DNA of 64,000 nt from a virus (taxonomy: Duplodnaviria > Heunggongvirae > Uroviricota > Caudoviricetes), in the IMG/VR virus record IMGVR_UViG_3300031555_005217, positions 7,047 through 71,046 of that record; one strand, given 5' to 3'. Positions 35,337 to 55,135 of this stretch are shown here, in pieces (the stretch's first letter is position 1; the number at the start of each line of letters is the position of its first letter). Both the position numbers and the translations under genes were made by a program. The notes under the pieces were generated by a model. The model made no database searches and was not told the origin of the DNA. It was given only the letters and a program-made list of their open reading frames with translations.

Positions 35337-35345
35337 TAATAAATA

Positions 35346-35369: not shown

Positions 35370-36500
35370 AATATGCAGCTACAAGAATTTTTTCTTCGCT
35401 ATAGAAATTTAATTGAACTTTCTTAGTGTTAAATTTATTTATTAATTCCATTAAATTCGTTATTAAATTTATATAATCAAACGATATCTCATTTTTATTA
35501 AACGCATCCTTTATAAAATCTATTTTTACTTTATTATTTGTTTTTATTATATCAAAATAAGTTTTTAAATTAAATAAATTTTTATTTGTTATAAGTTTAT
35601 CACTTAAATTTCTATTATTAAATTTTATATCTGAAGGAATTTTAATTATTTCTGGAAGTCAGATTTCTCTTAAAGCCTGTTTTATAATATAATCAGGAAT
35701 ATCATTTTTTACAATATATTCTCCTTCATCGGCCGTAAATTGATTACATAATTCATCTGCAAATTTAGGATTTAAATAAATATGAAGTCTAAATCTATCT
35801 GAAACTTTATACTCAGGATCATCTTTATGCTTTTTTCATTCTTCATAATTATTTAAATCATCTTTTTTTACTGTTAAAGATGGAGATGAAATTATTCCTT
35901 TATTATCTTGATAAAAATAATAAGATTTAAGATTAATTATTTCATCTTGATACTTTTCATTCCAACCTGAAGATTTATTTAACTTAAATTTTTGTCTTAG
36001 AATTGGAAAAGAATCAAATTCTAACATTTTTTCAACTAAATAAGTATATAATTCTTTTGAAATTTTAAATAATCCAGGTCAATTGTATACTTGTAAATAG
36101 TAGTTTCCATCTTCACCTTCTCCTACTCTATGTATTCTGGTATAACCTTTTCCTTTTTCTTGTCCTGTCAGATATTTTGAAAACTGATTTATGGAGATTA
36201 TTTCATTTCCTACTTTTTTAACATAATCTTCTACTAAATTAAAATCTAAATTAATTGCACAAGAAAATTTATTTGAATTTCTTATTATAGTTCCAGGAAT
36301 ATCATCTTTATTTTCTATGAATTGATTTGTAAATGAAACTGTACCTTTTCTTCCTTTTTTAATCCTGTTTTAAATATATTAGCTAAATCCTGCATACTTC
36401 TTGTAGCATGACTAAGCACTGTATCTTTAGCTGTAATTTTTACTCATTCATTAATTTCTAGTTGATTTAATTCTTTAATAGCTTCCAATAAAGTATTCAT
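35368..36500 (-). CDS. Late gene with ART-like motifs, interrupted by a -1 frameshift at A_AAA_AAG (about 377 aa when shifted; 4 TGA)
   Basis: GAGG SD and ATG 36500; LSHATRS..LANIFKTGLKK then -1 frame GRKGTVSFT...DEGEYIV; zero frame stops at TAG 36315-36317. Confidence 0.6.
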
Positions 36501-36531
36501 ATAAACCTCTTTTTAATTTTTATTCTTATAT

Positions 36532-36571
36532 AATTTAGCTATTTTTAATTATTTTAATCTATTAATTGTAT
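36532..36571. promoter_or_regulatory. Back-to-back promoters: GCTAAATT (minus, 36532-36539) and ATTGTAT (plus, 36565-36571)
   Basis: Both recurrent motifs sit in the 100-bp divergent intergenic region. Confidence 0.6.
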
Positions 36572-36601
36572 TATATAATAAATTGAAAATGAGGTGTTTG
36601 T

Positions 36602-37801: not shown

Positions 37802-37806
37802 TTACA

Positions 37807-37998
37807 ATGAAGATTTATGTAGTGGTATTAAAAGGTTATCATATCTATGAAAAAGCATTTTTAAATAGAGAAGATGCCGAAAATTTTATTGCTCCAATGA
37901 ATGATGATTATCATAATTACGTTCAGAATTGTATAGATAATTATGAATCTTATTCAGATATTGGTGAATATGAAATTATTGAGGAAGAGGTGAATTAA
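37807..37998 (+). CDS. Small hypothetical protein
   Basis: GGGAG SD before ATG 37807. Confidence 0.55.
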   Translation: MKIYVVVLKGYHIYEKAFLNREDAENFIAPMNDDYHNYVQNCIDNYESYSDIGEYEIIEEEVN

Positions 37999-38001
37999 TA
38001 T

Positions 38002-39060
38002 ATGACATTACAAGAGATTAAAGAAATGTTAAAAACAGAAGCATATGACTTCTTAAGAACTGATAAACATTTGGGAAATAGAATTATGTTTTTATGTTTA
38101 GGTGGTTCTCATAGTTATGGTACTAACATTGAAACATCAGATGTAGATATTAGAGGTGTAACTTTAGATACTACTGAATGTGTTTTAGGACTAGAACATT
38201 TCGAACAAAGATTAGATGCAACTACTGATACCACAATTTATAGTTTAAGTAAATTCTTAGATTTGGTTAGCAATTGCAATCCTAATATTATTGAAATGTT
38301 ATTTTGTAAACCAGAACATTATTTATATGTAAGTCCTTTAGGTCAAATCCTATTAGATAATAGACATTTATTCTTAACTAAGAGAGCTTATCATACATTT
38401 GGTGGATACGCTCATGCACAATTAAATAGATTAGAAAATGCAATGGCTAGAGATAACGAGGCATTGACTGAGGAAGAAGTTCAAACTCATATTTCTAGAT
38501 CTTTAAAGAATTGTCTTCAAAATTGTATTGAAAAATTTGAATTTAATGAAGATCAATTTAAGATTTATGTAGATAAATATGATAAGAATTATAATAAGCA
38601 ACAAGATAAGCTAGGTACATTTGGTATCTTTATGGATGCAACATTTGAAAAATTACCTGTCGCAGAATTCAATTCATTACTGTTGGAATTAAGTCAAGTA
38701 GTAAGAGATTTTAATTCAAGTGTTGGTCAACGTAATAAAAAGAAGGATGATATTCACCTTCAGAAGCATATGATGCATTTAATTCGTTTGTATATTATGT
38801 GTAATGAAATCTTAACTACAGGTGATTTACATACATATCGTGAGAATGAACATGAATTATTAATGAATATTAGAAATGGTAAATATAGAAGTGAAGATGG
38901 TAAGGTAACTCCTGAATTCTATGAAATGTTACATAAGTTAGAAACTGAATCTAAATCAGGTTATGATAATTCCAAGTTACCTAAAACAGTTGATAAGAAA
39001 CAAATTTATGATAAAATTATTAAACCTATTTATTCACAAACATTATTTAAGGAGGAATAG
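38002..39060 (+). CDS. Pol-beta-type nucleotidyltransferase (RlaP/Nuc-transf-like)
   Basis: GGSHSYGTNIETSDVDIRGV, NPNIIEML, KHMMHLIRL. Confidence 0.85.
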   Translation: MTLQEIKEMLKTEAYDFLRTDKHLGNRIMFLCLGGSHSYGTNIETSDVDIRGVTLDTTECVLGLEHFEQRLDATTDTTIYSLSKFLDLVSNCNPNIIEMLFCKPEHYLYVSPLGQILLDNRHLFLTKRAYHTFGGYAHAQLNRLENAMARDNEALTEEEVQTHISRSLKNCLQNCIEKFEFNEDQFKIYVDKYDKNYNKQQDKLGTFGIFMDATFEKLPVAEFNSLLLELSQVVRDFNSSVGQRNKKKDDIHLQKHMMHLIRLYIMCNEILTTGDLHTYRENEHELLMNIRNGKYRSEDGKVTPEFYEMLHKLETESKSGYDNSKLPKTVDKKQIYDKIIKPIYSQTLFKEE

Positions 39061-39062
39061 TT

Positions 39063-39842
39063 ATGGAAACAGATGCTTTAGGAACTAGAATGAAGGAATA
39101 TGAATTTGTTCCTAGAAATTATTTATTAAGAAGAACACCAGTAATTATTAGAATTGATGGAAAAGCTTTTCATACATTTACTAGAGGTTTAAATAGACCT
39201 TTTGATAAGACTTTTCAAAAATGTATGGTTGAGACTGTTAAATATTTATGTGCAAATGTTCAAAATTGTGTATTAGGTTATACTCAATCTGATGAAATTA
39301 CATTAGTTTTATTAGATGATTTCAAATTGAATACCTCTCCATATTTTGATAATCAGGTTGAAAAGATTTGTTCAATAACAGCATCAATGGCAACCTTAGC
39401 GTTCAACCAAGCAATTTATAATGAATTGGAATCTGGTTTTACTGAAGGAGATCCATCATATGATGTATGGAAACAAAAACTTTTCAAAGCACAATTTGAT
39501 AGTAGATGTTTTAATGTTCCTAATCGAACTGAAGTATATAACTGTTTAGTTTGGAGACAACAAGATGCTATTAAGAATAGTATTACAATGTTAGCTTTAT
39601 CACATTTCAGTAATAAACAATTACATAAGAAAAATGGTAAAGAAAAAATTACTATGTTAGAAGAAATTGGTGTTAGGTGGAATGAATTAGATAACATTGA
39701 TAAACAAGGAATTATTATTAAAAAAGTATATTATGATAAGAATGGAGCTTTAAGAAGTAAATGGGAAGAAGATGTAAACACTCCTGTTTTTACTAAGGAT
39801 CCTGATTATATTATGAAATTATTAAACAAAGAAGGTGAATAA
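39063..39842 (+). CDS. Thg1-like tRNA-His guanylyltransferase / 3'-5' RNA polymerase
   Basis: IRIDGKAFHTFT, GYTQSDEIT, FDSRCF, WRQQDA..NS. Confidence 0.92.
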   Translation: METDALGTRMKEYEFVPRNYLLRRTPVIIRIDGKAFHTFTRGLNRPFDKTFQKCMVETVKYLCANVQNCVLGYTQSDEITLVLLDDFKLNTSPYFDNQVEKICSITASMATLAFNQAIYNELESGFTEGDPSYDVWKQKLFKAQFDSRCFNVPNRTEVYNCLVWRQQDAIKNSITMLALSHFSNKQLHKKNGKEKITMLEEIGVRWNELDNIDKQGIIIKKVYYDKNGALRSKWEEDVNTPVFTKDPDYIMKLLNKEGE

Positions 39843-39843
39843 A

Positions 39844-40275
39844 ATGATTTCAGTTAACGTACATCAAGATATGATTACCGCAATGAAAAATAAAGATAAA
39901 TTAAAGAAAGATGTCTTATCTTTACTTTATAGTAAGTTAAAAAATAAATCAATTGAACTAAAGCAATTACCTTTAGAAGATAATGAATCAACAAAAATTG
40001 TTCAAAAATTTATTAAAGAACTAGATGATGAAATTGTATTAAATATTAAAGTAAATAGAATTGAAGCCGCAAATAATTTAAAATTACAAAAAGAAGTCGT
40101 TTCTTCATATTTACCTAAAATGTTATCTGAAGATGAAATTAGAAATGAAATTGAAAAATTAACAGATAAATCTATTCCATCTATTATGAAACATTTTAAA
40201 GCAAATTTCAATGGAAAGGTTGATATGGGTTTAGTAAATAAAATTGCTAGAACTTATCAAGGAATGGAGAAATAA
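39844..40275 (+). CDS. GatB/YqeY domain protein
   Basis: AMKNKDK, LKNKSIE, YLPKMLSEDEI, GKVDMGLV. Confidence 0.85.
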   Translation: MISVNVHQDMITAMKNKDKLKKDVLSLLYSKLKNKSIELKQLPLEDNESTKIVQKFIKELDDEIVLNIKVNRIEAANNLKLQKEVVSSYLPKMLSEDEIRNEIEKLTDKSIPSIMKHFKANFNGKVDMGLVNKIARTYQGMEK

Positions 40276-40276
40276 T

Positions 40277-41635
40277 ATGAATTTTAAAATCCCTAAAAAC
40301 ATTCAACAAGTATTAGATATTTTACATAAGAATAATTTCGAAGCATACCTTGTTGGAGGTTGTGTTAGGGATTTTCTTATGAATATTGAACCTAAAGATT
40401 ATGATATTACTACTAATGCTTTACCTAATCAAATTAAAGAAGTATTTAAGGATTACAAATTAATTAATAATAATGGTGAAAAGCACGGAACTGTTACTGT
40501 TTTTATTGAGGAACCTATTGAAATAACTACCTATAGAGGAGAAACTACTTACTCAGATCATAGACATCCAGATGAGGTTATTTTTAAAACGGAATTAAAA
40601 GATGATTTAAGCAGAAGAGATTTTACAATTAATGCAATGGCTTATGATGGAAATAAGTTAGTAGATTTATTTCTAGGAGAAGATCACATTATTCTTTCAC
40701 AATTACATGCTGTAGGAGATCCAGATGAACGTTTCAAAGAAGATGCCTTAAGAATTCTGAGAGGTATTAGGTTTGCATCAAGATATAAAATGTCTATTGG
40801 CAAAAAAACATTGGAAGCAATGCATAAAAACAAATATTTATTAGATTTTATTTCTAAAGAACGTATTAGAACAGAGTTAAATAAAATGATTTCATATGAA
40901 TACTTTGCAGTTTTACTAGAGACTGAGGTAAGAGATATTATTTCTTATATTCTACCTGAAATAAGTGTTATGTTTGATTATGATCAAAGAAGTTTATATC
41001 ACACTAATGATTTATGGCATCATACTTTATCAACAATGTTCTCATTAAATACCTATAACTATATTGTTAAAGTTGCAGCTTTACTTCATGATGTAGGAAA
41101 ACCTTATGTGGCAACTGAATATGAAAAAGATGGTGTTATATTAAAACATTACATTGATCATGCGGAAAAATCATATGAAATTGCTACAGGAATTTTAGAT
41201 AGATTAAAATATTCTAATGAAGAGAAAGAAAAGATTTTATTCCTAATTAGATATCATGATTTTAATTTTTCTACAAAAAGATTAAACAGATCTATGAAAA
41301 AATTTATTCAGTTAATTCCTGAAAAATATAGAGATGAATTATTTGAACTATTTTTGGAATTAAAGTTTGCTGATAATAGAGATCATACTATTAATTTTCC
41401 AAAAGAAGTTATAGATGAATTAGAAACTGCCTATAACTCAATCATTAACACTGAAATTTGCTTTTCTTTAAAGCAATTAGCTATAAATGGTAATGATTTA
41501 TTAAAACTCGGTTATAATGGAGTTTTAATAGGAAAAATATTAAATGATTGTTTAAATAAAGTTATTGAAGAAATTTTAGAAAATAACAAAAATGTTTTAA
41601 TTACATATGTAAAAGATATGTATATATTAAATTAA
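40277..41635 (+). CDS. cca: CCA-adding tRNA nucleotidyltransferase with HD domain
   Basis: YLVGGCVRD, DYDITT, RRDFTINAMAY, EDALRILR, LHDVGKP. Confidence 0.92.
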   Translation: MNFKIPKNIQQVLDILHKNNFEAYLVGGCVRDFLMNIEPKDYDITTNALPNQIKEVFKDYKLINNNGEKHGTVTVFIEEPIEITTYRGETTYSDHRHPDEVIFKTELKDDLSRRDFTINAMAYDGNKLVDLFLGEDHIILSQLHAVGDPDERFKEDALRILRGIRFASRYKMSIGKKTLEAMHKNKYLLDFISKERIRTELNKMISYEYFAVLLETEVRDIISYILPEISVMFDYDQRSLYHTNDLWHHTLSTMFSLNTYNYIVKVAALLHDVGKPYVATEYEKDGVILKHYIDHAEKSYEIATGILDRLKYSNEEKEKILFLIRYHDFNFSTKRLNRSMKKFIQLIPEKYRDELFELFLELKFADNRDHTINFPKEVIDELETAYNSIINTEICFSLKQLAINGNDLLKLGYNGVLIGKILNDCLNKVIEEILENNKNVLITYVKDMYILN

Positions 41636-41671
41636 TTGTATAATAATTAATATTAAGTAAAGGAGAATAAT

Positions 41672-42313
41672 ATGTTAACAGAACAACAAATAGAGTTAAA
41701 TAAAAATGAATTTTTATCCTTAATTAATCAAATTAATATTCCTGGAGCAGATATTCAAGGATTAATTAAATTTTTAGAAGAAAGTGATTTCTTTTACGCT
41801 CCTGCTTCTACTAATTACCATTCAGCATATACAGGTGGATTATGTGAACATAGTTTAAATGTATATAGAACATTAACAAAATTAGTAGAAATGTTTAGTT
41901 ATCAAATTCCTAATTTAGATATGAATTCAGTATTAGTTGTAGGACTATTACATGATTTATCTAAAGTAAACTTCTATGAATCTTATATTAAAAATGAGAA
42001 AATTTATAATGAAAAAGGATTAAAATCTGATAATATGGGAAAGTTTGATTGGGTTGCTAAACAAGCTTTTAAAGTAAAAGAAGCTAAAAATAGATTTTTA
42101 TGTAAAGATCATGAAACAAATTCTATGATTTTAATCTCTAGATATATTCCTTTAAGTATGGAAGAAACAATAGCAATTCTTAATCATCATGGAGGATTAG
42201 GTGATACAAGTACTAATTGGGATTTAAGTCCTATTACTGATACAAATCCTTTATTATGTTTACTTCATGCGGCTGATTATATGAGCACATTTATTCTAGA
42301 AAATATGGAGTAA
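41672..42313 (+). CDS. HD-domain phosphohydrolase (YhaM-like)
   Basis: HSAYTGGLCEHSLNV, LLHDLSK, HHGG, LHAAD. Confidence 0.85.
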   Translation: MLTEQQIELNKNEFLSLINQINIPGADIQGLIKFLEESDFFYAPASTNYHSAYTGGLCEHSLNVYRTLTKLVEMFSYQIPNLDMNSVLVVGLLHDLSKVNFYESYIKNEKIYNEKGLKSDNMGKFDWVAKQAFKVKEAKNRFLCKDHETNSMILISRYIPLSMEETIAILNHHGGLGDTSTNWDLSPITDTNPLLCLLHAADYMSTFILENME

Positions 42314-42314
42314 A

Positions 42315-42680
42315 ATGAAAGATAATTTAAGTTTAATTGAAAAAGAACTTAAAAAAGTTAAATATGCAGACTTATCTACTTTTGATATTAATACTAATAC
42401 TTATTTTATTAAAAAGAGAAATGATATTAAAATTGAAGAAGATAAGTCTTATTTAATTTATCTAGAAGATTCTTTTTTTAATGATTTAGATTTAAAAATT
42501 AAATGGAATTCAAATTTATCGCCTAATTATAGATGTTTAAAAGTTGTTATTGATAAATTATATTTAGATATGGTTAAAATATCAGGTATAGCTTATGATT
42601 TAAATATGAATAAAGATATAGCCTATGTTTGGTCAGGTTGGTCACATTTAAATCAAATTAAAGTATTACAAAAATTATAG
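42315..42680 (+). CDS. Hypothetical protein
   Basis: Track ORF, coupled to the HD gene. Confidence 0.6.
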   Translation: MKDNLSLIEKELKKVKYADLSTFDINTNTYFIKKRNDIKIEEDKSYLIYLEDSFFNDLDLKIKWNSNLSPNYRCLKVVIDKLYLDMVKISGIAYDLNMNKDIAYVWSGWSHLNQIKVLQKL

Positions 42681-42723
42681 AATTGTATATTAAATTAAAT
42701 TTAAGTAGAAAGGAATTGATATA

Positions 42724-43776
42724 ATGGCACAATCACTTGCAGTCAAATATAGACCTAAAACATTTGAAGATACATTATCTCAAGGATCTGTTATTAAAAT
42801 TTTAAGAAGACAATTAGAATTAAAGCAATATACTAATTGTTATTTACTTTCAGGACCTTCAGGCTGTGGTAAAACAACATTAGCTCGTATATTTGGAAAT
42901 GAAATTAATCAAGGAAAAGGCAGTTTAATAGAAATTGATGGAGCTTCTAATAATGGAGTAGATGCTATTAGAACCATAATTGATGAAGCTAAAGAAAGAA
43001 GTATTGATAGTGAATATAAGATATTTATTATTGATGAATGTCATATGATTACTACTCAAGGCTGGAATGCATTCTTAAAATGTATTGAAGAACCTCCTAA
43101 ATATACTATATTTATGTTTTGTACAACAAATCCTGAAAAAGTTCCTGCAACTATTCAAAATAGAGTTATGAGACTTAATTTATCTAAAGTAAATATAAAT
43201 TTAATTAAAGATAGATTGCTTTATATATGTAAAAATGAAGGATTTACTAATTTTAATGAAGCTTGTGAATTTATTTCTAAATTAAGTTCTGGAGGAGTTA
43301 GAGATGCTATTTCTTTATTAGAAAAATGTGCTAATTATTCCACCGATTTAAATATAAATAATGTTTTAGAGTGTTTAGGTAATTTCTCTTATGATTTATT
43401 TTTCGATTTAACAAATGCTTTTGTTGATAGAAATCAAGGAGAGGTTTTAAATATCCTTCAAAGTTTTTATGATTCAGGAAAAGATTTAAAATTATTTGTA
43501 GATCAATATTTAGATTTTATATTAGATTTAAATAAATATTGCATATTTAAAAATATGATAAGCTTAAAAATACCTGCATCTTTAGAGGTGGTCAGATTTT
43601 CTAATGGAGATCCTAATCCAAGATGTGTTAAGTATGTAACTGGTATTGAAAATAATATAAATTATTTTAATATGCTCGTTAAACACATTTTAAATATGAA
43701 GAACATAATTAAGTATGATACTAATATTAAATCTACTATAGAAGCTTTAAGCATTCAAATTTGTGCTGGAATATAG
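42724..43776 (+). CDS. dnaX: Clamp loader DnaX (gamma/tau-like) ATPase
   Basis: LAVKYRPKTF, GPSGCGKTT, EIDGASNNGVDAIR, IIDECHM, LKCIEEPP, TIQNR. Confidence 0.92.
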   Translation: MAQSLAVKYRPKTFEDTLSQGSVIKILRRQLELKQYTNCYLLSGPSGCGKTTLARIFGNEINQGKGSLIEIDGASNNGVDAIRTIIDEAKERSIDSEYKIFIIDECHMITTQGWNAFLKCIEEPPKYTIFMFCTTNPEKVPATIQNRVMRLNLSKVNINLIKDRLLYICKNEGFTNFNEACEFISKLSSGGVRDAISLLEKCANYSTDLNINNVLECLGNFSYDLFFDLTNAFVDRNQGEVLNILQSFYDSGKDLKLFVDQYLDFILDLNKYCIFKNMISLKIPASLEVVRFSNGDPNPRCVKYVTGIENNINYFNMLVKHILNMKNIIKYDTNIKSTIEALSIQICAGI

Positions 43777-43794
43777 AGATAAGGATTTTAATTT

Positions 43795-44622
43795 ATGAAT
43801 AAAATATTAGGACAAGATAATTTATTAAATAAATTAAATAATTATGATTTAAATAACTTTCCTAGATCTTTATTATTAGTAGGAGATAGAGGAAGTGGAA
43901 AACATTTAATATCTAATTATATAAAAGAAAATATTTTAAATCTTCCTTTAATTGATATTACTGAAATAATTTCTTCTGAAGTTATTGATAATATTTATAT
44001 AAATCCAAATCCTTCTATATATTTAATTAATTTGTCTGATATTACAGAAAAAAGTCAAAATATACTATTAAAATTTATAGAAGAACCTTTAAGTAATGCT
44101 TATATTATTTTATTATGTGAATCTAAATTAAATGTTTTAAATACTATTTTAAATAGATGTGTAACTATTGAATTAGAATTATATACTAAAGATATTTTAA
44201 GTAATTTTATTTCAAATAATGAGAATAAGGAACTTATTCTAAATGTATTAAAGACTCCTGGAGATATTATAAATTCAAATTTAAGTAATATTGAAGAATT
44301 ATATGATTTATGTATTAAAATATGTGATAAAATAAATTCAGCTAATATTCTTAATTCATTATCTATATGTGATAAAATAAATTATAAAGATGAATATAGT
44401 AAATTTGACTTAAATTTATTTTTAGATGTTTTAGCATATTCATTAAATAAATACTATAAAGAAACTTTATGTTTAAAATATTTAAATATGTATTTAATAT
44501 TAATTGAAAATAGAAAAAAATTAATTGATAAAAGAATAAATAAAAGACTGTTTATGGAAAGTTTAATTATCAAACTTTGGAAAGGAAGTAGAGATAATGG
44601 ATATAATTCAATTAAAATCTAA
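43795..44622 (+). CDS. holB: Clamp loader delta-prime-like subunit
   Basis: Degenerate Walker A GDRGSGKH, QNILLKFIEEP, VLNTILNRC. Confidence 0.75.
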   Translation: MNKILGQDNLLNKLNNYDLNNFPRSLLLVGDRGSGKHLISNYIKENILNLPLIDITEIISSEVIDNIYINPNPSIYLINLSDITEKSQNILLKFIEEPLSNAYIILLCESKLNVLNTILNRCVTIELELYTKDILSNFISNNENKELILNVLKTPGDIINSNLSNIEELYDLCIKICDKINSANILNSLSICDKINYKDEYSKFDLNLFLDVLAYSLNKYYKETLCLKYLNMYLILIENRKKLIDKRINKRLFMESLIIKLWKGSRDNGYNSIKI

Positions 44623-45487
44623 AATAGAATCTAATTCTTTAGATGATTCTTTACTTATTTTAAAGTATTCTGATAATAAATTTTTATGTGAACATTATAT
44701 AGATAATATATCTAAAAATAAAAATTTAGAAAAAGTATATGTAAATTCTATAACTGATATATTTCAAAATAATTCATTCTTTGAAACTGAAGATAATTAT
44801 TTATATGTTTTAGATGTAGAAAAATTAACTGAATATCCTGATCAAACTTATAAAAATTTAATTATTTTATGTAAAGAATTACCTGATAATTTAACTGTTG
44901 ATTATGTAGAAGTCAATAAATTAATTAATTGGCAAATAGAAGATTATGTTAAAATGAGATTACAAGGTTTGGGAGAACAAGAAGTTGTTTGGTTATGTCA
45001 AATATGTAAATATGATATTTATAGATTAGATCAAGAATGTAAAAAGATAGAAATATTTCCTGTAGGAGCAAGAAATAATATATTTAACATTATAAATTCA
45101 GATAATGGATATTGTGATTTAACAGATAAAAATTTATTTGATTTTACTGATGCTGTTATAAGAAAAGATTTAGAGACTATAAATAATTTAATTCCAGATA
45201 TATTCGTTGTAGATATAGAACCTTTAGGAGCTGTAACAACTTTATTAAAGAAATTTAAACAAATATTAGCAATACAAACAAATTGTAAATCTGCTATAAC
45301 TTCTATGGGAATGAGTGATAAACAAGTTTGGTTTTTAAAGAATAATCAATGTAATATTTATAGTACAGATAAAATTATAGATATTATTGAGTTTTTAACT
45401 GATATAGATTTTAATTTAAAATCAGGTAATTTAGAATTAAGTAAAGAATCTTTTTTAGATTATTTAGTTGTTAATATGCTAAATTAA
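44597..45487 (+). CDS. holA: Clamp loader delta-like subunit
   Basis: LDQECKKIEIF, NLFDFTDAV, EPLGAVTTL, LTDIDFNLKSG; follows dnaX/holB. Confidence 0.7.
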   Translation: MDIIQLKSKIESNSLDDSLLILKYSDNKFLCEHYIDNISKNKNLEKVYVNSITDIFQNNSFFETEDNYLYVLDVEKLTEYPDQTYKNLIILCKELPDNLTVDYVEVNKLINWQIEDYVKMRLQGLGEQEVVWLCQICKYDIYRLDQECKKIEIFPVGARNNIFNIINSDNGYCDLTDKNLFDFTDAVIRKDLETINNLIPDIFVVDIEPLGAVTTLLKKFKQILAIQTNCKSAITSMGMSDKQVWFLKNNQCNIYSTDKIIDIIEFLTDIDFNLKSGNLELSKESFLDYLVVNMLN

Positions 45488-45523
45488 TACTGTATAATAT
45501 ATTTAGAAAGGAAATTGATTTAT

Positions 45524-47383
45524 ATGGCTAAAGTAGATAAAAAAGATAGAATATTAATGATTGTTGAAAGTCCAAATAAAGTAAAGACACTTAAACAAAT
45601 TTTACCTGACAATTATATTATTATGGCTTCTGTAGGTCATATTAGTAAAATAAATGACTCTGGATTATATAATATGGGAATTGATCCAAATAACAATTTC
45701 GAATTTGACTTTGTAATTTCTCCAGATAAAAAAGAAGTTGTTCAAAAATTAAAAGAACAAGTAAAATTATCTGATAAAGTTATATTAGCTAGTGACCCTG
45801 ACCGTGAAGGTGAAGCTATTGCATATCATTTAAAGAATTTCTTAAAAATTCCTGAAAATAAATATGAAAGAATTACTTATCATGAAATAACAAAAAAAGC
45901 TGTTATGGAAGCTTTAAAAAATCCTAGAAAAATAGATGAGAATTTAGTTGGTGCTTCTTTAAATAGAAGTGGAAGAGATAAAATAGTAGGATATAGAGTT
46001 TCAAATATAGCTAGAAATAATGTTAATGCAAGATCTGTAGGAAATTGTCAATCTCCTGGTTTAGGTCTTATTGTAGATTTAGAAGAAGAAATTGAAAATT
46101 TTAAATCTGAAACTTATTTTGATTTATATTTACATTTTTCAAAGAACGATGTTGATTTTAAAGCAAAATATTTTGGAACTAAAGAAAAAGAAATTTCAAG
46201 ATTAAATTCTCTTAATGAGTGTAAAAATATAGTTAATGAATGTAAATTAAATAATTATTCTATTTTAGATATAACAAAAAAAGATAGCTTAGAAAATCCT
46301 AAACCTCCATTTACAACTTCAACATTCCAACAAGAAGTTTCTAAAAGACTTGGAATTAGTGTAAAAGATGCTATGGATTCTGCTCAAAAACTGTTTGAAG
46401 GTATTGATATAGAAGGAGATCATATAGCCTTAATTACATACCATCGTACAGATGATGCAACTTATGCTCCTGAATTTTTACCTGAATTGGAAAATTTTGT
46501 TAAAAATACTTATGGAAATGAATATTATTCTCCTGTTAAGTTTGGCAAAAAAGGTGAAAATGCTCAAGAAGGTCATGAAGGAATAAGATGTATTGATCTT
46601 GAAATGACTCCTGAAAAATTAAGTAATTATATCTCTAATCAAAGACTTTTAAAAATATATGATATTATATATAAACGTACAGTAGCTTCAGCTATGAAAC
46701 CTGCTATTATTGCTAATACTATATATACTATTCAAAATGGAAATCATTTATTTACAATGAATTCTAAAGAATTACGTTTTGAAGGATATAGAAAAGTTTA
46801 TTCTTACAGCTCAAATGATGATTCTAAAGAAGATGCTCAAATAATAAAAGAAACATTTGAAATTAATGAAATATTACAAAATACATTTGAAGAAGCAGTT
46901 GAAAAACATACAAATCCTCCTTCAAGATATACTGAAGCTTCGTTCTTAAAAATATTAGATAAAAAAGGTATAGGACGTCCTTCTACTTATTCAACTATTA
47001 TTTCAACTATATTAGATGAAAAAAGAGGTTATTGTAAATTAGTAGATAAGTATTTAATTCCAACAGATTTAGGAATTAAATTAGTTCATTTCTTAAAGAA
47101 AAATTTCCCTTCTATTGTAGATGTCACATCTAGAGCTTCAATGGAAAAGACTTTAGATTTAATTGCAAAAGGAAAAGTAAATTATATAGATGATTTAAAA
47201 CAATTTTATTCTTCACTTGAGAATGAAATTAAAAAGATTTCTCCTAATGAAGGACAAGAAAAAATTTGTTCTAAATGTGGAAAACCTATGGCAATAAGAA
47301 AAGGTAAATATGGATTATTCTATGGATGTACAGGATATCCTGAATGTAATAATATAGAAAAATTTGGATATAGAAAGGATTAA
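45524..47383 (+). CDS. topA: Type IA DNA topoisomerase with C-terminal Zn ribbon
   Basis: IVESPNK, ASVGH, ASDPDREGEAI, ITYHRTD (catalytic Tyr), AQEGHEGIR, GIGRPSTY, CSKCG...GCTGYPEC. Confidence 0.92.
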   Translation: MAKVDKKDRILMIVESPNKVKTLKQILPDNYIIMASVGHISKINDSGLYNMGIDPNNNFEFDFVISPDKKEVVQKLKEQVKLSDKVILASDPDREGEAIAYHLKNFLKIPENKYERITYHEITKKAVMEALKNPRKIDENLVGASLNRSGRDKIVGYRVSNIARNNVNARSVGNCQSPGLGLIVDLEEEIENFKSETYFDLYLHFSKNDVDFKAKYFGTKEKEISRLNSLNECKNIVNECKLNNYSILDITKKDSLENPKPPFTTSTFQQEVSKRLGISVKDAMDSAQKLFEGIDIEGDHIALITYHRTDDATYAPEFLPELENFVKNTYGNEYYSPVKFGKKGENAQEGHEGIRCIDLEMTPEKLSNYISNQRLLKIYDIIYKRTVASAMKPAIIANTIYTIQNGNHLFTMNSKELRFEGYRKVYSYSSNDDSKEDAQIIKETFEINEILQNTFEEAVEKHTNPPSRYTEASFLKILDKKGIGRPSTYSTIISTILDEKRGYCKLVDKYLIPTDLGIKLVHFLKKNFPSIVDVTSRASMEKTLDLIAKGKVNYIDDLKQFYSSLENEIKKISPNEGQEKICSKCGKPMAIRKGKYGLFYGCTGYPECNNIEKFGYRKD

Positions 47384-47387
47384 TAAT

Positions 47388-47912
47388 ATGATTAAATTTT
47401 ATAAAGTAAGTTATCAACAATTTAAAGAGGATTTCTTAAATAGTGATTATAAGTATTTAAACTTAGAAGAGGAAGATATTAAGTTAATATATGAAAATAT
47501 TAAGTTACCAAAGAGAGCTACAAAAAATTCTGCAGGATATGATTTTTATCTTCCTACTGGAATCAAATTATTAAATAACCAAAGTGTTAAAATTCCAACA
47601 GGAATTAGATGTGAAATGGATCCTGAATCAGTATTAATGTTACTTCCTAGAAGTTCTTTAGGGTTTAAATATAGATTTTCTTTAGATAATACTTGTGGAG
47701 TTATTGATGCTGATTATTTCTCAGCTCTAAATGAAGGTCATATTCAAGCTAAAATCCATTTTTATAATGAAGATAATGAATATATTTACCTTGATGGTGA
47801 AAGTGCGTTTATGCAAGGTATTTTTATGAATTATTTAAAAACAGTAGATGATAATACAAATGAAGAGAGAACTGGTGGATTTGGTTCTACAAATAAAAAA
47901 GGTAATGAATAA
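47388..47912 (+). CDS. dut: Trimeric dUTPase
   Basis: SAGYDF, PTGI, PRSSLG, GVIDADY, RTGGFGST. Confidence 0.92.
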   Translation: MIKFYKVSYQQFKEDFLNSDYKYLNLEEEDIKLIYENIKLPKRATKNSAGYDFYLPTGIKLLNNQSVKIPTGIRCEMDPESVLMLLPRSSLGFKYRFSLDNTCGVIDADYFSALNEGHIQAKIHFYNEDNEYIYLDGESAFMQGIFMNYLKTVDDNTNEERTGGFGSTNKKGNE

Positions 47913-47990
47913 TCATTACCTTTATTTTTTTTTTACTTTAAAATATTATATACTTAAGCAAAGAAAAAAGGAGTTATTAATAACTCCTTT
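47898..47990. terminator. Two facing terminators where plus- and minus-strand units converge
   Basis: AAAGGTAATGA/TCATTACCTTT (47898-47933) and AAAGGAGTTA/TAACTCCTTT (47967-47990). Confidence 0.8.
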
Positions 47991-47997
47991 AATTAAA

Positions 47998-48471
47998 CTA
48001 TTTATTATATTTCCTTAATAAGTTTAAGTCTATTACTTCTTGATTAGACGATCCTCTATATTTAAGTCTTATATCCTTTTTATCAATTTCGAAAGGTCCG
48101 CAAACTGCAACATCTATTGGACTGTTTAATAAAAGTTCCTTTTTCAAATCAAATTCAAATCCTGTCCATAACCATATATCCTTATTAGGATATTTTTCTT
48201 TAACCTTATTACATAATTTTATAACACCATTAACATTATATGGATGTAATGGCTCTCCACCTAATATAGATAAACCTTGATAATGATCTGGTTTTAATAA
48301 ATCAATTATTTTATCAATTGTGGAATCAGTAAACTCTATACCTAAATTAAAATCCCAAGTATCCTCATTAAAACAACCTTTACAGTGAAAATGACATCCT
48401 TGAAAAAATATACTAACTCTAATTCCTGGACCATTTGATATATCCATACATCTTATCTTGTTATATCTCAT
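47998..48471 (-). CDS. nrdG: Anaerobic RNR activating enzyme (radical SAM)
   Basis: DISNGPGIRVSIFFQGCHFHCKGCFN, LGGEP, YRGSSNQ. Confidence 0.93.
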   Translation of the reverse strand: MRYNKIRCMDISNGPGIRVSIFFQGCHFHCKGCFNEDTWDFNLGIEFTDSTIDKIIDLLKPDHYQGLSILGGEPLHPYNVNGVIKLCNKVKEKYPNKDIWLWTGFEFDLKKELLLNSPIDVAVCGPFEIDKKDIRLKYRGSSNQEVIDLNLLRKYNK

Positions 48472-48473
48472 AA

Positions 48474-48710
48474 TTAGTTTCCTTCCTTTTGATTATTGTC
48501 AATTAATTCTAATTCACCTACAGTATAACGATACTTTCGACGGTAATTTCCTCTTCCTTCAACTAAGTAATAAACTTTACAACTCTTTTTAGTTTTATTA
48601 ATAACATAACCTTCAATAATACCTTCACCATCAGTATCCATTCTATTATTATGACTTTTTACATAAACTCTATCGCCAATATTGAATTTAACATCTATTT
48701 TTATTTCCAT
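48474..48710 (-). CDS. Small SH3/YorP-like hypothetical protein
   Basis: KFNIGDRVYV...GIIEG pattern. Confidence 0.55.
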   Translation of the reverse strand: MEIKIDVKFNIGDRVYVKSHNNRMDTDGEGIIEGYVINKTKKSCKVYYLVEGRGNYRRKYRYTVGELELIDNNQKEGN

Positions 48711-48778
48711 ATTTTTTTATGTTACCTTTCCTTAACCTTATATACATATTGTACTACAAAAGATTATAATTATCAACT

Positions 48779-49093
48779 CTATTTTACAATTTTATAACAA
48801 TTTGCCGAACAATCTAACCCAAACACTTTTATTGATCCATCTTCTTTATAACAATCACAATACGCTTCACACCATCCATGACTAAAGTCTAAAACACCAA
48901 CTGTGTACGTATCATCGTCACATAAGAAACTTTTTGCCGTTTTATATGCTTCAGTTTTACTTTCATATAAATTTATTTTACCATATTTTACTAAATCATA
49001 AATAATTTTCTCATAAATATCGTGAATGCTAGGAAAATGTCTATAACAGTAAATAGGTATATAATATTCTTTTCTCTCTAATAATGTTTTCAT
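48779..49093 (-). CDS. Hypothetical protein
   Basis: Track ORF ending TAG. Confidence 0.55.
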   Translation of the reverse strand: MKTLLERKEYYIPIYCYRHFPSIHDIYEKIIYDLVKYGKINLYESKTEAYKTAKSFLCDDDTYTVGVLDFSHGWCEAYCDCYKEDGSIKVFGLDCSANCYKIVK

Positions 49094-49503
49094 ATTTGTT
49101 TACCTTCTAACCATATACTATAGGTATCATGCATTCTATTAGGACGTTTACCATACCAAGTTTCCATTCTGAAGGGCGTAAAAATTTTATGTGCTAAAAA
49201 GTATTCTAATCTAATTAAACTTTCTTCAGTTAAATTATATAGATAACATGATGTCCAAGATCCAAAACTAGAAGGACATAAACCTCCAGAATCATGATTA
49301 ACGAAATGTATAGAACAATCTTGTGCCATTTCGGTTTTTAATCCAAGTCTTTTATAAAAGACATATTCCTTTGCATCATTTGATCTAAAATCAATACAAG
49401 TTATTTCTTCTTCATCTAATTCTAACTTGCTATTTAAAAAATTAAATAATTCTTCTACACAAGGAAATTTATTTAATTTTATATCTTTTCTTAATTTAAG
49501 CAT
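49078..49503 (-). CDS. Hypothetical protein; ends at TGA 49090 (code 11) or TAG 49078 (code 4)
   Basis: AAAGGTGG SD; ATGA overlap with the next gene. Confidence 0.55.
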
Positions 49504-49552
49504 ATAGTGCCCACCTTTCTATAATAATTATACAATAAACCGGTAAAATAAA

Positions 49553-49568
49553 AAGGTCTTTCGACCTT
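49553..49568 (-). terminator. Terminator after NrdD C-terminal part
   Basis: AAGGTC-tttc-GACCTT stem with a T-run on the minus strand. Confidence 0.65.
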
Positions 49569-49573
49569 ATTTA

Positions 49574-50674
49574 TTAAATTTCTTTATTATCTAAATGTAG
49601 TACTCTTTCTTTTATTTCTTGAGTTCTTCCTTTGTTCCAGAAATTACTTCCAATATATCCACAAGTACGACGAGCAACATTTAACTTATCATGTTCCTTA
49701 TTTCCACAATTAGGACAATACCATTCTAAGTTATCATCAATTAAAATTTCACCTTCATAACCACATACTTGACAATAATCACTCTTAGTATTTAATTCAG
49801 CATACATAATGTTATCATAGATAAAATTAATCACTTGTAATACTGCTTCAATATTGTTCTGTAGATTAGGAGTCTCTATATAACTAATTGCGCCACCAGG
49901 ACTTAATGCTTGGAATTCACTCTCTAATTTTAATTTTGTAAATGCATCAATTTCTTCAAATACTGGAACATGATAACTATTAGTAATATAATCTTTATCT
50001 GTAATTCCTTCTATTACACCAAAACGCTTCTTTAAACATTTAGCAAACTTATATGTTGTAGATTCAATAGGCGTACCATATACTGAATAATCAATATTTT
50101 CTGCTTCTTTCCATTCTCTACATTTATCATTAAGATATTGCATAACTTGTAAACCAAATTCCTTGCCTTCTCCTGTATGAGAATGTCCAGTCATATATTT
50201 TACACATTCATATAATCCAGCATATCCTAAAGAAATTGTTGAATATCCATTAAATAATAACTTATTTATTTTTTCACCTTTATCTAATCTAGCTAATGCT
50301 CCATGTTGCCATAAAATAGGAGCCATATCAGAAGGTCTGTTTAATAATCTTTCATGTCTACATCTTAATGCTGTGTGGCAGATATCTAAACGTTGATCTA
50401 ATAATTTCCAGAATTTTTTATAATCACCTTTACTAGATAACGCCACATCAGGTAATGAAATTGTTACAACTCCTTGATTGAATCTTGAATAATATATAGG
50501 TTTATGTTCTATTAAATATATCTTATTATCTATTTTCTCTAAACCAGAGATGATATATATCTTATCATTATTTAATTTTATTTTCTTAGGGACATTAAAT
50601 TCAATAATATTGTTTTTTGGAGTATATCCAGATTTTAATGAGGTTTCCCATAATTTATTAACATCCATTGTCAT
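49574..50674 (-). CDS. nrdD: Class III RNR, C-terminal fragment (NrdD-b) with its own start
   Basis: RFNQGVVTISL, SLGYAGL, YGTPIES, SGGAI-like PGGAISY, CQVCG...CPNCG, RRTCGYIG glycyl-radical loop; AAGGAG SD. Confidence 0.9.
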   Translation of the reverse strand: MTMDVNKLWETSLKSGYTPKNNIIEFNVPKKIKLNNDKIYIISGLEKIDNKIYLIEHKPIYYSRFNQGVVTISLPDVALSSKGDYKKFWKLLDQRLDICHTALRCRHERLLNRPSDMAPILWQHGALARLDKGEKINKLLFNGYSTISLGYAGLYECVKYMTGHSHTGEGKEFGLQVMQYLNDKCREWKEAENIDYSVYGTPIESTTYKFAKCLKKRFGVIEGITDKDYITNSYHVPVFEEIDAFTKLKLESEFQALSPGGAISYIETPNLQNNIEAVLQVINFIYDNIMYAELNTKSDYCQVCGYEGEILIDDNLEWYCPNCGNKEHDKLNVARRTCGYIGSNFWNKGRTQEIKERVLHLDNKEI

Positions 50675-51734
50675 TCTCCTTCTTATATATCTTTAAATTC
50701 TCTTTGACAAATAAATAAAATTCTTTAATTTCTTTTCTATAATTAGCTGAAATATTTGAATTAACTTCCAAATATTTTAATATATTTTTAGTTATTTTTA
50801 CTTTGAATTTATTACTAAAGTTTATATTTAAAAAGTCAATAAAATCAATTCCATTATAGAAAATATTATTATTAAAATCATAAATATATTTAGAGTTTTT
50901 ATTTCTTTGCAATTTATGATATTCCTGTAACTTTTTAGAACGTTCGATTGAATTACTACAACTTCATTTCTTAGGTTCTAAAATGGTACATTCAGTATTT
51001 ATCCTTTTAATCTCATCTTCAAGATTTTCAAAAGTAAATTTATCTCTATTACGAAATAATTCACTTACTTCTTTTAATTTATTATATTTCCTATAAAACT
51101 CAGGTGTATGACCGAATAAGGAATTAAATTCTTTTCGCCACTCTCTACTTTTAATTTTATTACTATTTCTATTATTAATTTTTTTAGATTCTATTGCATT
51201 TTTATTTTTATCATCAGCATATCAAGATTTAAGAGAACTAGATACTTTATTATATATCTCTTCTTTTTTGTCTTCAGACATATTTTTATGATAAGCAATA
51301 CATTTATCTCTAAAAATTTTTAAATTATCTCTATTCTGTAATTTAAGTTTATTTCCTTGACCACCTTTAGAAGCATTTATATGTTTTTGTTCATCAGTTA
51401 ATGTTTGATTTATAAAAGTAAAACTGCCAAATCCGCCATCATTTAAATTCAAACAATTATCACCTAATTCCACTTTTTTACTGTTAACTAATTGTTTTTC
51501 TGCTTCAGCCAAATCATTATAATTACAAAAGAAAGCTAAAATACTTTTCTCTAACCCTTCATTACCATATTTCTTTTTGTAATTTTTTAATATTACACTT
51601 GAACCATAGTAATTATCATCCAGATTATCAGTACAATGCATTCCATAGTAATATTTATTATGTAACGAACTACTATTGTTATTCACCTTTATTTCATATA
51701 AATAGTAATACTTAAAAATTTTAGTTATATTCAT
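50658..51734 (-). CDS. GIY-YIG/Seg-type homing endonuclease (358 aa, 2 TGA)
   Basis: YYLYEI...YYGMH.T...DNYYGS...KKYG...K.IL, NLNDGGFG; track ORFs 51222..51734 and 50658..50912 joined by TGA 51222 and 50964. Confidence 0.85.
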
Positions 51735-51741
51735 GTTATCA

Positions 51742-51776
51742 ACTCCTCAATTAATTTAGTGAATTAATTGAGGAGT
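51742..51776 (-). promoter_or_regulatory. 15-bp perfect hairpin sequestering the endonuclease SD, with a late-promoter-like variant in the loop
   Basis: ACTCCTCAATTAATT-CACTA-AATTAATTGAGGAGT; GAGGAG lies in the 3' arm 8 nt before the ATG; ACTAAATT overlaps the loop. Confidence 0.85.
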
Positions 51777-51800
51777 AAAATAATAATAACTACACCGTGA

Positions 51801-53108
51801 TTAATCTATTAATTCAAATTCTTCAGCTATTTGTATTCTTTTATTATTTTGAGTTATGTAATTAGATGATTTACTTATATTTCCGGCAGTTATTGAAAAT
51901 CTATCAGGTGTTAAGAATGATCTACATCCCATACATGGATAACAATCATCACTTCCAATGGAACTATGTTTTAACTGTTTCATTACCTTTTCTGATATAT
52001 AATCAGGAACCATTCTCTTAGCAGTACATTTAGCTGCTAATTCAGTTAAATAATAAAATTGTGAATCTTTATGAATGTTATCTTCTTCTAATACATATAA
52101 TAACTTAGGGAATGCCGGAGTTATATATACACCTTTTTCATTTTTCATTCCTAAAATTCTTTGTTTTAAAAATTCCTCAATTAACATAGCTAATTCATTC
52201 TTATATAAATCTGTTTCCCCTAAATACATATTCACACTTAAGAATGGGGCTTGGCCATTAGTGGTAGACATTGAATTTATCTGATAATTAAATGTTTGTA
52301 CTGATGCCTCAATTTCAGATTTTAAATCTTCATTTGCATGTTTAATAACATCATCAATGTTTTCACCACGTGATTTATATCTATCTACATAATAATTGTA
52401 ACTATCTCTAACAAAAGGAGCTAAATGAGTTAATGATACTGTACATCCACCATATTGAGAACTTGCTACAGCAGTTATAATTTGTGTAGCAATTGTTGTA
52501 GCTGTTAATAATTTATGTGGTTTTTCAATCATTACTCCATTTATCATTGTTCCATTTTGTAACATATCTTCTAAGTTAATTAAGTCACAATTATGTAAAG
52601 CATTTTGTGCAAAATAATCAGCATCATGAAAATGAATAATACCATCATTATGCGCCTTAACTACTTCTTTTGGCAATAATACTCTGCTAGTATAATCTGT
52701 GGAAGTAATACCTGCAAAATAATCTCTTTGAACAGTAACTGTTTTAGCATTCTTATTAGAATTTTCAGTATTCCAATATTCACTTGTTCCTTCCATTAAT
52801 TCTTTTAAAGCACTATCAGTAGTATTATCTTTTCTTAACAAATCTTTCTTGTATCGATAATGATAATATTCCTTAGCTAAATTACCTTTACCTAGAACAA
52901 TTAGTTGATCTTCAATTATATCTTGAATATCATCTACTTTCATTCTTTGACGATTTAATCCATTTATATAATTTAATATAAATTGAATATCATCTTCACT
53001 AGCTCTATCTTTTCTAGCTACTTCTCTATTAGCTTTAAAGATCGCCATTTTAATTTTATCTTCATTGTACTCTTCTAAACTAGAGTTTCTTTTTACAACT
53101 TTATCCAT
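51801..53108 (-). CDS. nrdD: Class III RNR, N-terminal fragment (NrdD-a) with ATP cone
   Basis: VVKRN ATP cone, HFHDADY, SSQYGG, NGQAPF, PAFPKL, RMVPDY, MGCRSFL thiyl-Cys motif. Confidence 0.92.
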   Translation of the reverse strand: MDKVVKRNSSLEEYNEDKIKMAIFKANREVARKDRASEDDIQFILNYINGLNRQRMKVDDIQDIIEDQLIVLGKGNLAKEYYHYRYKKDLLRKDNTTDSALKELMEGTSEYWNTENSNKNAKTVTVQRDYFAGITSTDYTSRVLLPKEVVKAHNDGIIHFHDADYFAQNALHNCDLINLEDMLQNGTMINGVMIEKPHKLLTATTIATQIITAVASSQYGGCTVSLTHLAPFVRDSYNYYVDRYKSRGENIDDVIKHANEDLKSEIEASVQTFNYQINSMSTTNGQAPFLSVNMYLGETDLYKNELAMLIEEFLKQRILGMKNEKGVYITPAFPKLLYVLEEDNIHKDSQFYYLTELAAKCTAKRMVPDYISEKVMKQLKHSSIGSDDCYPCMGCRSFLTPDRFSITAGNISKSSNYITQNNKRIQIAEEFELID

Positions 53109-53175
53109 ATAAAAATCCTTTCTGCTGAATCGCTTTTGTAATTATTTTAGCGTTCAATAACGAGATAATTTTAAA

Positions 53176-54855
53176 TTATAGATCTTGAATAAATTCTCTT
53201 AATAATTTAATAGAATTATCATCCATCTTATCATCAACTATAAAGTCACTTATAGCTTGTTTAGTAGCTATAATATTTTCTACAACTTCATCAACAGTAT
53301 CTTCACAAATTAGTTTATATATAAAAACTGGTTTTTTATTATCAACTCTATGAATTCTATCTTCAGCCTGTTTTTGGACAGCAGATGTTCAAGGAGTATT
53401 TATACATATCATATAACTAGCTGCATTTAAAGTTATTCCTGTTCCTGATTTACTTACAGTTGCTAAAAATACTTTATATTTATCATTTGTTTGAAATAAA
53501 TCAACATTTTTAGAGAATTCATCATCTGAAATATCTCCAGTTCCAAGTAAAGGATTATATTCTTTTAATTCTGAATATAATTCATTTAAAGGATCTTTAA
53601 ATGTTGACATTATAACAACTTTTTCATTATTCCCTACAATCTCTTCAACTAATTCTTTAACTCTTTCTAGTTTTGATGATTTTATATTTTGAGTAGTTAG
53701 TTGTGATGGACAAGATGTTGCCTGCATTAATCTTACAGTTAATCCTAATACATTATTTGAATTTAATTCTATTTTATCACATTCTTCTTTAATTCCAGCT
53801 TTTACACTATCATAAAATTTTTTATGTGTTTCATTCATTTCAAGTATTTCATTTATTACTGTTTTTGAAGGAAAATCAGGTAACATATCTTTAGTTCTTC
53901 TTAAAGAACAACTCTCTATTTCATCTTTTAAGATATCTAAGTTTTTATATCCTACTATTTGATGTCCTCCAAATCCTCCAAATTCGCAATATTGAGACTT
54001 GAAATTTGTTAAATTAGATTTTTCTACATCAATTCATTTTAAAATTGTATAAGCATCTAAAGGTTTATTCATAATTAAAGTTCCTGTTAAACCTAATTTA
54101 TGTTTATAATTTTTTAGTTTTAATAGGTTATTTCCTTGAGTTGAAGAACTATTTTTACATTTATGTGCTTCATCTACAACAACCATTCCAATATTATTTT
54201 TAGTTGTTTTTAAAGCAGTTATAACATCATCACTTCTTAAAGTTTCAATATTAGTTATTAGAAAGAATTCATTTAAAGGTTCCATAATTTCTTTTGCTCT
54301 ATCTTTTATAGGAGCATAACTAATTTTACCTTTTTTACTTATCTTTTTTCCAATTACTCTAACTGATTCATTAGAATGTTTTTTTATTTCCTTTTCCCAA
54401 TTAGTTTTTAAAGAATTAATTCCACAAATAATTAGACAATGTTCTAATCCTTTTTGTGCTTTTAACTCTTCAGCTAAATAAATTACCTGTAAAGTTTTAC
54501 CTAATCCTGGATCATCTAAAAGTAATCATGAATTTTTATTTAATCCAAATTCAATTCCTTCTAATTGATGTTCAAAAGGTTTTGTTTTATACTGATAAAT
54601 TAATTTAGGATAAAAATATTCTTTATTTTCTTCTTTAGGTAATATTTCTAAATTTATATCATCAATGTAAGTTAAATTATCTAATAAATAACTTAAAGAA
54701 GTTATAGGTAATTCTCAGCATAATAATTTTTTATGAAAAATATATTTATCACAACTTTTTAAAATATCTATTATTTCTTGATTAAAATCAAATTTTATAA
54801 ATAAAGATGTTACTCCTGAAATTTTTTGAGGTATATCTTCTTTTATATAAATCAT
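53176..54855 (-). CDS. SNF2-family helicase (559 aa, 4 TGA)
   Basis: LDDPGLGKT, VVDEAHK, LTGTLIMN, GTGITLNAA, NTP-W (TGA 53389), QAEDRIHR. Confidence 0.9.
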
Positions 54856-54856
54856 A

Positions 54857-55135
54857 TTATTTTAAATTAGTTGTAAATAACTCTTCAAAAATATCTTTAA
54901 CTTCAGAAGTTTTAAATGTTAGTGTTGCTTCAATTGAAAAATCCTTTTTACAATTATCACAATTATATTTTTCTTTTAAATCAGGTGAAGTTCCTTCATA
55001 ACTAATTATCATTCCATTTGAATCTTTTACTACATTTTTTGGTTGTCCTACTAAAGCTTTTGGTAAATAAATTTCACCTGGAAAGTATTCATGACCACAA
55101 TGAGGACATTTTATAATATCATTAGTTTTTACCAT
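54857..55135 (-). CDS. Small Zn-ribbon protein
   Basis: CPHCG...CDNC. Confidence 0.65.
   Translation of the reverse strand: MVKTNDIIKCPHCGHEYFPGEIYLPKALVGQPKNVVKDSNGMIISYEGTSPDLKEKYNCDNCKKDFSIEATLTFKTSEVKDIFEELFTTNLK

Follow-up and report, generated by a model that had tools for sequence, protein, structure and literature searches.

A class III ribonucleotide reductase gene divided by a Seg-like homing endonuclease gene in a TGA-recoded phage: a candidate for genes in pieces

The stretch of DNA analysed here (the window) comprises 64,000 nucleotides (nt) of the phage IMGVR_UViG_3300031555_005217, and coordinates are window positions unless stated otherwise. This gut-type phage, with a genome of 156.9 kb and 26% G+C, carries its class III ribonucleotide reductase (RNR) gene, nrdD, in two pieces with a homing endonuclease gene between them. 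The order on the minus strand is nrdD-a, a 66-nt spacer, the endonuclease gene, nrdD-b, a terminator-like hairpin, three small open reading frames (ORFs) and nrdG. The split locus is confirmed as it was set out in a preliminary description of the sequence: the two nrdD ORFs lie where they had been placed, and both their Pfam domains and an alignment to T4 NrdD agree with the assignment. The split copy is the only nrdD in the phage genome. Because the same arrangement was found again in at least three other ENA samples, with the NrdD-a protein encoded on 11 contigs, the split is not an assembly artefact. Samples in which this phage occurs include ERZ27248314, ERZ27248351 and ERZ27248446.

The upstream gene, nrdD-a (51801-53108, minus strand), encodes 435 amino acids (aa), ends in a TAA codon (51801-51803) and contains no TGA codon; its product has an ATP-cone and matches positions 1-292 of the Pfam NRDD profile. 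The downstream gene, nrdD-b (49574-50674, minus strand), is likewise free of TGA and encodes 366 aa from an ATG at 50674 or 364 aa from an ATG at 50668; its product covers NRDD positions 272-562 and contains the Gly_radical domain. The barrel is divided, with the first half on NrdD-a and the second half on NrdD-b. Catalytic residues were placed by alignment to T4 NrdD, for which structures exist. NrdD-a has the thiyl Cys395 (in MGCRSF, codon 51924-51926; T4 C290) and Cys174 (HNCDL; T4 NCC motif), and NrdD-b has Asn66 (T4 N311), the glycyl-radical Gly339 (codon 49658-49660; T4 residue 580) and the zinc-ribbon cysteines C301, C304, C320 and C323. The class III residue set (thiyl Cys, second Cys, Asn, Gly and zinc ribbon) is complete and spread over two chains, and the expectation that the thiyl cysteine and the glycyl radical would lie on separate polypeptides is borne out by the alignment. 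The partner gene is present as well: nrdG (47998-48471, minus strand) encodes an intact 157-aa radical-SAM activating enzyme (Fer4_12, E = 1.7e-45) without a TGA codon.

The gap between the two nrdD genes depends on the genetic code that is applied. Under translation table 11 it holds a 170-aa ORF and an 84-aa ORF, whereas under code 4 it holds one ORF of 358 aa and ORFs tile the whole window densely. In the nrdD gene of the closest relative found (on the ENA contig L001, described below), TGA stands at the conserved Trp positions 552 and 778 (APILW and NYW). A tRNA with the anticodon UCA is among the 26 tRNAs of the phage (positions 101157-101252 of genome C1), and the match of the 358-aa product to phrog_314 spans both in-frame TGA codons. 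For these reasons (the tiling, the Trp positions, the tRNA and the match across the TGA codons), we conclude that the phage decodes TGA as Trp. The earlier claim that the endonuclease fills nearly the whole gap holds for the 358-aa product, with TGA read as Trp; it fails under table 11, which leaves 170 aa. Many genes of the phage are TGA-free, including nrdD-a, nrdD-b, nrdG and the block at 31291-49503, and the SNF2 helicase gene at 53176-54855 has four TGA codons.

The endonuclease gene (50658-51734, minus strand) is free-standing and encodes a protein of 358 aa (P0121), with in-frame TGA codons at 51222-51224 (W171) and 50964-50966 (W257). Residues 8-331 match phrog_314, 'homing endonuclease' (E = 6e-16). 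The protein matches Seg-like endonucleases of T4-type phages, and it is 29% identical to the RB16 'Seg-like homing endonuclease, GIY-YIG family' (BLASTP E = 9e-18); the motifs YLY, YYG, EAEKQLV and NLNDGG align with the RB16 protein, which itself passes the Pfam GIY-YIG (PF01541) and NUMOD3 profiles. By its sequence, the product is classed as a predicted Seg-like GIY-YIG homing endonuclease, encoded by an ORF with a start and a stop of its own, which interrupts a normally single gene. This ORF is in the frame of NrdD-a but lies beyond two TAA stops, and it is out of frame with NrdD-b. Sequence searches of NCBIfam and PDB returned no match, no close relatives were found in IMG/VR, and a single-sequence AlphaFold model was unusable (predicted local distance difference test score [pLDDT] of 35).

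A hairpin of 15 base pairs (bp) with a 5-nt loop (51742-51776, minus strand) holds the endonuclease Shine-Dalgarno sequence in its 3' arm (GAGGAG, 51743-51748, 8 nt ahead of the ATG at 51734). The 146-nt stretch containing this hairpin folds at -28.3 kcal/mol (z = -3.9), and none of 200 shuffled sequences was as stable. Hairpins that cover the ribosome-binding site (RBS) are known for T4 I-TevI, I-TevII, I-TevIII and segB and for Aeh1 mobE (PMC2988022).

Each half of nrdD has its own translation signals and a unique tail: a TAA follows the 18-aa tail of NrdD-a, and an AAGGAG and ATG precede the 56-aa head of NrdD-b. The reference for this extra sequence is a set of intact 729-aa homologues that are approximately 70% identical, in which nothing matches the C-terminal 18 aa of NrdD-a or the N-terminal 56-58 aa of NrdD-b; just four or so residues would be expected between ...NY and P(I/K)YY. 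The C-terminal tail of NrdD-a (residues 418-435; 51804-51857, minus strand) is acidic, with an isoelectric point (pI) of 4.6, and the N-terminal head of NrdD-b (50501-50674, minus strand) is basic, with a pI of 9.3. These lengths agree with the approximately 18 novel residues before the TAA and the approximately 55 at the NrdD-b N-terminus that had been noted: 18 aa have no counterpart in intact NrdD, and alignment to the homologues gives 56-58 aa for the head. The head is free of stops in its own frame; the other two frames contain seven and eight, and an open frame survives in just 0.4% of shuffled sequences.

The separate start of nrdD-b also stands, with one refinement. Its Shine-Dalgarno sequence (AAGGAG, 50676-50681, minus strand) is real and lies within the 3' end of the endonuclease ORF, and is spaced 1 nt from the ATG at 50674 and 7 nt from the ATG at 50668 (50666-50668). 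In other samples, gene calls for nrdD-b homologues open with MDVNKLW. Given the 7-nt spacing and the agreement of these gene calls, the second ATG at 50668, giving a protein of 364 aa, is the likelier start.

The closest homologue, P0003, is encoded on the 2.8-kb contig L001, which is syntenic with the window (helicase, then nrdD) and 79-81% identical to it at the nucleotide level on both sides of the split. Under code 4, L001 encodes one uninterrupted NrdD of 798 aa and no endonuclease. Exactly at the split site, this protein has a stop-free in-frame insert of 71 aa (213 nt), the start of which aligns with the NrdD-a tail and the remaining C-terminal three quarters with the NrdD-b head, with 33-35% identity and a common LEKID-x-K motif (BLASTP E = 0.005 for head versus insert). 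The tails thus appear not to be unique to the split form, as a relative without the endonuclease has them fused in frame. Stops are absent from the frame of the insert, whereas the other two frames have seven and 10, and only 0.2% of shuffled versions are open; differences in the insert number 34, 26 and 39 at the three codon positions. From the open frames relative to shuffles and from this codon-position pattern, we conclude that the extra sequence is probably translated.

Comparison with L001 also delimits a mobile cassette of approximately 1135 nt (51803 down to 50669) that is precisely absent from the relative and consists of a stop codon, the regulatory hairpin and the endonuclease gene. 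It provides the TAA of NrdD-a, and the 3' end of its endonuclease gene provides the Shine-Dalgarno sequence of NrdD-b. The cassette maps between the GAT and ATG of 'KDMD' in L001, so the start of NrdD-b is a Met codon that was present beforehand. Insertion has taken place in a segment of variable length, approximately 22 residues past the thiyl cysteine: the distance from GCRSF to GRFNQG ranges from 57 to 99 nt across phage NrdD genes, indicating that the site tolerates length changes. Within the L001 insert, a 10-bp G+C-rich inverted repeat (ACCGCGTTAT ... ATAACGCGGA, L001:1667-1760) flanks the empty endonuclease site; it has no counterpart in the window.

Beyond the present locus and L001, no homologue of the insert was detected in the collections searched. 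Word-based protein searches with the insert and the head returned nothing beyond P0003 and near-identical copies, HMMER found no matches to the insert among 1.84 billion representative proteins, and a pattern scan of Joint Genome Institute (JGI) metagenomes and IMG/VR gave no confirmed insert-bearing relatives. No paralogous module resembling the insert was found elsewhere in the phage genome.

If the locus contained a self-splicing intron (of group I or another type) that had escaped recognition, with the endonuclease in its loop, the mRNA would be spliced to encode a single NrdD, as in T4 nrdD/I-TevII. Many nrdD genes of IMG/VR phages are in fact interrupted at one of two places, the M|GCRSF codon or just downstream of RFNQ, and six such interruptions, used here as controls, are plain group I introns (some with ORFs) that share ACGACTA ... 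GATATAGTC and CCGTGCTAA; nrdD is also known as a frequent intron host (PMC2988022, PMC3653736). The gap leaves room for a ribozyme core (the ORF is flanked by approximately 120 nt at its 5' end and 150 nt at its 3' end), and a U and a G that would restore the frame can be picked out by eye at the 5' and 3' sites, respectively. An Rfam scan of 49000-55000 (E up to 1) gave no match, but Rfam 15 also missed all six evident control introns with either cut-off, the gathering threshold or E up to 1. The negative result at the window is therefore without weight, and this insensitivity, like the room in the flanks, counts in favour of an intron.

Other tests are more informative. The motifs shared by the six controls, which belong to the P7 and J8/7 core, occur nowhere in the gap, the L001 insert or the window as a whole, and the empty version in L001 is an open in-frame stretch of 213 nt with coding-type substitutions. 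The gap flanks have a G+C content of 21-23%, lower than both the exons (28-29%) and the control introns (29-42%). The nrdD-a gene closes with a stop codon, and nrdD-b opens with a Shine-Dalgarno sequence and an ATG of its own. Folding of the 3' flank (z = -0.08 relative to shuffles) also points away from a ribozyme, although this is a weak argument that does not discriminate, as one real intron gives z = -0.3. The T4 nrdD (sunY)/I-TevII locus resembles this one in its host gene, in the GIY-YIG family of its endonuclease and in the hairpin over the endonuclease RBS (PMC2988022), but it differs in being a self-splicing ribozyme with a looped ORF, whereas here no ribozyme core was found and the flanks appear to be translated. 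Taken together, we consider an intron at this site improbable.

Splicing at the protein level appears more improbable still. A free-standing endonuclease gene between two gene halves is also the arrangement of fractured genes with split inteins, which include RNR genes among their hosts (Dassa et al. 2009, PMC2677866); on this model the tail and the head would each be one half of an intein, and protein trans-splicing would ligate the two NrdD chains. The extra sequence here seems too short for this and lacks intein blocks and nucleophiles. Tail and head together total 71-76 aa (approximately 75 aa in the window and 71 aa in the fused form of L001). Natural inteins have approximately 125 aa or more. 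A Cys, Ser or Ala start with a TxxH block is lacking, as is a His-Asn end in the window, and the insert is followed by Pro rather than Cys, Ser or Thr. No Pfam Hint/intein domain was detected at the locus at E below 0.01, and the insert is without a homologue in the representative protein set mentioned above. An in-frame fusion reading was also considered and rejected on size, frame and end residues. A sequence that does resemble a full intein is found in the nrdD of a related phage (L029:2809-3923), where a 384-aa in-frame insertion at the thiyl Cys codon ends in SHN before Cys, and it is quite unlike the insert described here. We would give the split intein very little credence. As far as the sequence can tell, there is neither an intron nor an intein at the split site, in keeping with the failure of the preliminary description to find intein ends or group I core elements.

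We therefore favour, with a probability of roughly 0.7, a class III reductase in pieces that resembles Aeh1 nrdA/mobE and would be assembled after translation, with no splicing. All three ORFs would be on one transcript running to the terminator after nrdD-b: a terminator-like hairpin followed by a T run lies directly downstream of the nrdD-b stop codon (49553-49568, minus strand), and no terminator-like site was found between nrdD-a and nrdD-b. NrdD-a and NrdD-b would be made separately, with neither RNA nor protein being spliced, and the two chains would form a single ten-stranded barrel. Its composite active site would draw Cys174 and Cys395 from the first chain and Asn66 and Gly339 from the second. 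The acidic 18-aa tail may pair as an extra strand with the basic, beta-rich head of 56 aa, which would help to join the halves. In an AlphaFold 2 (AF2) model of the fused form, the insert is folded as one strand, one helix and five strands, with the cassette site in the loop that follows the first of these strands. Expression of the endonuclease would be restrained both by the hairpin over its RBS and by its two TGA codons, which require the phage UCA tRNA, and it presumably spreads by cutting endonuclease-free alleles such as that of L001.

By analogy, the locus is best read as working like Aeh1 nrdA-a/mobE/nrdA-b. To our knowledge, Aeh1 NrdA is the only fragmented RNR shown to work without splicing. 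The parallel that had been drawn with this system (taken here from Friedrich et al. 2007 and Crona et al. 2011) extends to the RBS-sequestering hairpin, the oppositely charged tails and, by inference at our locus, co-transcription. In both cases a free-standing endonuclease splits the large RNR subunit near the active-site cysteine loop, and the halves have unique, oppositely charged C- and N-terminal tails; an intron or intein is lacking in Aeh1 and probably here too; the endonuclease RBS lies in a hairpin, and the halves are co-transcribed and separately translated in Aeh1 as they probably are here. The charged tails of Aeh1 NrdA are essential for activity (Crona et al. 2011, PMC3045599).

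The two systems also differ in several respects. The Aeh1 enzyme is of class Ia, whereas the present one is a class III glycyl radical enzyme; MobE is an HNH endonuclease rather than Seg-like GIY-YIG; and the polarity of tail charge is opposite. Unlike in Aeh1, the endonuclease here needs TGA to be read as Trp, and there is a natural relative with fused tails and no endonuclease, of which none is known for Aeh1. Activity has been demonstrated for Aeh1 and is predicted here.

A competing explanation for two such ORFs is a decaying gene, in which endonuclease insertion has inactivated nrdD and the ORFs are remnants still undamaged. This seems unlikely to us, as both ORFs are full length with all catalytic residues kept, the NrdD-b Shine-Dalgarno sequence is well spaced, the head is open against a chance expectation of 0.4%, nrdG is intact, no second nrdD exists in the genome and the arrangement is stable over several samples. 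Variants of NrdD-b (P0122 and P0123) match the window protein except at the C-terminus and in a cluster in the zinc-ribbon region (residues 303-330); differences concentrate in that region, with the cysteine ligands spared, which speaks against decay. The clustering of these changes suggests recombination between alleles. Relative to L001, the core of NrdD-a has a ratio of nonsynonymous to synonymous substitution rates (dN/dS) of 0.17, and that of NrdD-b has a ratio of 0.10.

The NrdD-a/NrdD-b complex was predicted with a score of 0.91, compared to 0.00 for the best of three controls; a score this high is obtained for 58 of 80 solved complexes and for two of 110 mismatched pairs. At least 90% of contacts are common to the runs, the partner pLDDT is at least 88, and the predicted interface takes in residues 421-435 of the tail and residues 1-5 and 23-73 of the head. 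Since structures of intact NrdD have been solved, this result is not evidence of binding; the score is probably the model's memory of those structures and a measure of likeness.

Several points weigh against a working two-chain enzyme of this kind. The dN/dS values cover time both before and after the split, so that constraint since the split is unproven, and close relatives are too similar to gauge selection over that period. One close variant, P0002, has a D402V substitution at an otherwise invariant column; this and the similarity of the relatives speak for decay. The homology of tail and head to the L001 insert is weak at 33-35% identity, and the AF2 model of the insert is of moderate confidence (pLDDT 48-67). 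The endonuclease has no direct match to the Pfam GIY-YIG profile. Finally, splicing is set aside by sequence arguments alone.

Split phage nrdD genes have been reported before (PMC3653736, PMC12880540), although the preliminary description knew of no class III equivalent. Among phage RNR genes, nrdD is the one most often split (Dwivedi et al. 2013, PMC3653736), and 95 of 104 Jug phage genomes have it in fragments, for which endonuclease genes are commonly responsible; RNA reads gave no evidence of splicing for one such gap (PMC12880540). Those loci resemble this one in having pieces with stand-alone endonuclease genes between them (PMC12880540, PMC3653736), but tails, translation signals and endonuclease-free alleles were not analysed in the reports, and Jug phages use the standard genetic code. 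A two-chain NrdD would extend the genes-in-pieces pattern to class III, with the radical-storing glycine and the thiyl cysteine on different chains.

L001 bears on how gene splits are tolerated. The authors of the Aeh1 work asked where the tails originate and predicted that tail-like sequences would be found in other fragmented genes (PMC3045599). A tentative answer is that the 71-aa tail/head is a self-complementing mini-domain, carried or recruited by the cassette and serving as an antidote that spares the essential gene it splits; we regard this as possible but doubtful. L001 would then be either the in-frame scar of endonuclease loss or a landing pad that preceded its arrival, and thus a natural intermediate answering the question of how the tails of genes in pieces arise. 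The locus and its L001 counterpart, one split and the other fused but both with this extra sequence, make a natural pair for experiment, and as both nrdD halves and nrdG are TGA-free, they can be expressed directly in E. coli.

There are also consequences for annotation. In TGA-recoded phages an endonuclease such as this one is wrongly called in pieces, and real phage group I introns escape Rfam, so that such loci will be mislabelled by automatic annotation. Two further observations may be added. The three small ORFs between nrdD-b and nrdG (137, 104 and 78 aa; 48474-49503) have no Pfam or PHROG match. In related phages, clear group I introns of nrdD occur with or without endonuclease ORFs at the IMG/VR loci L005, L016, L056, L007, L026 and L076/L080 (around locus positions 3100-4000), and the nrdD of L056 is in at least four pieces.

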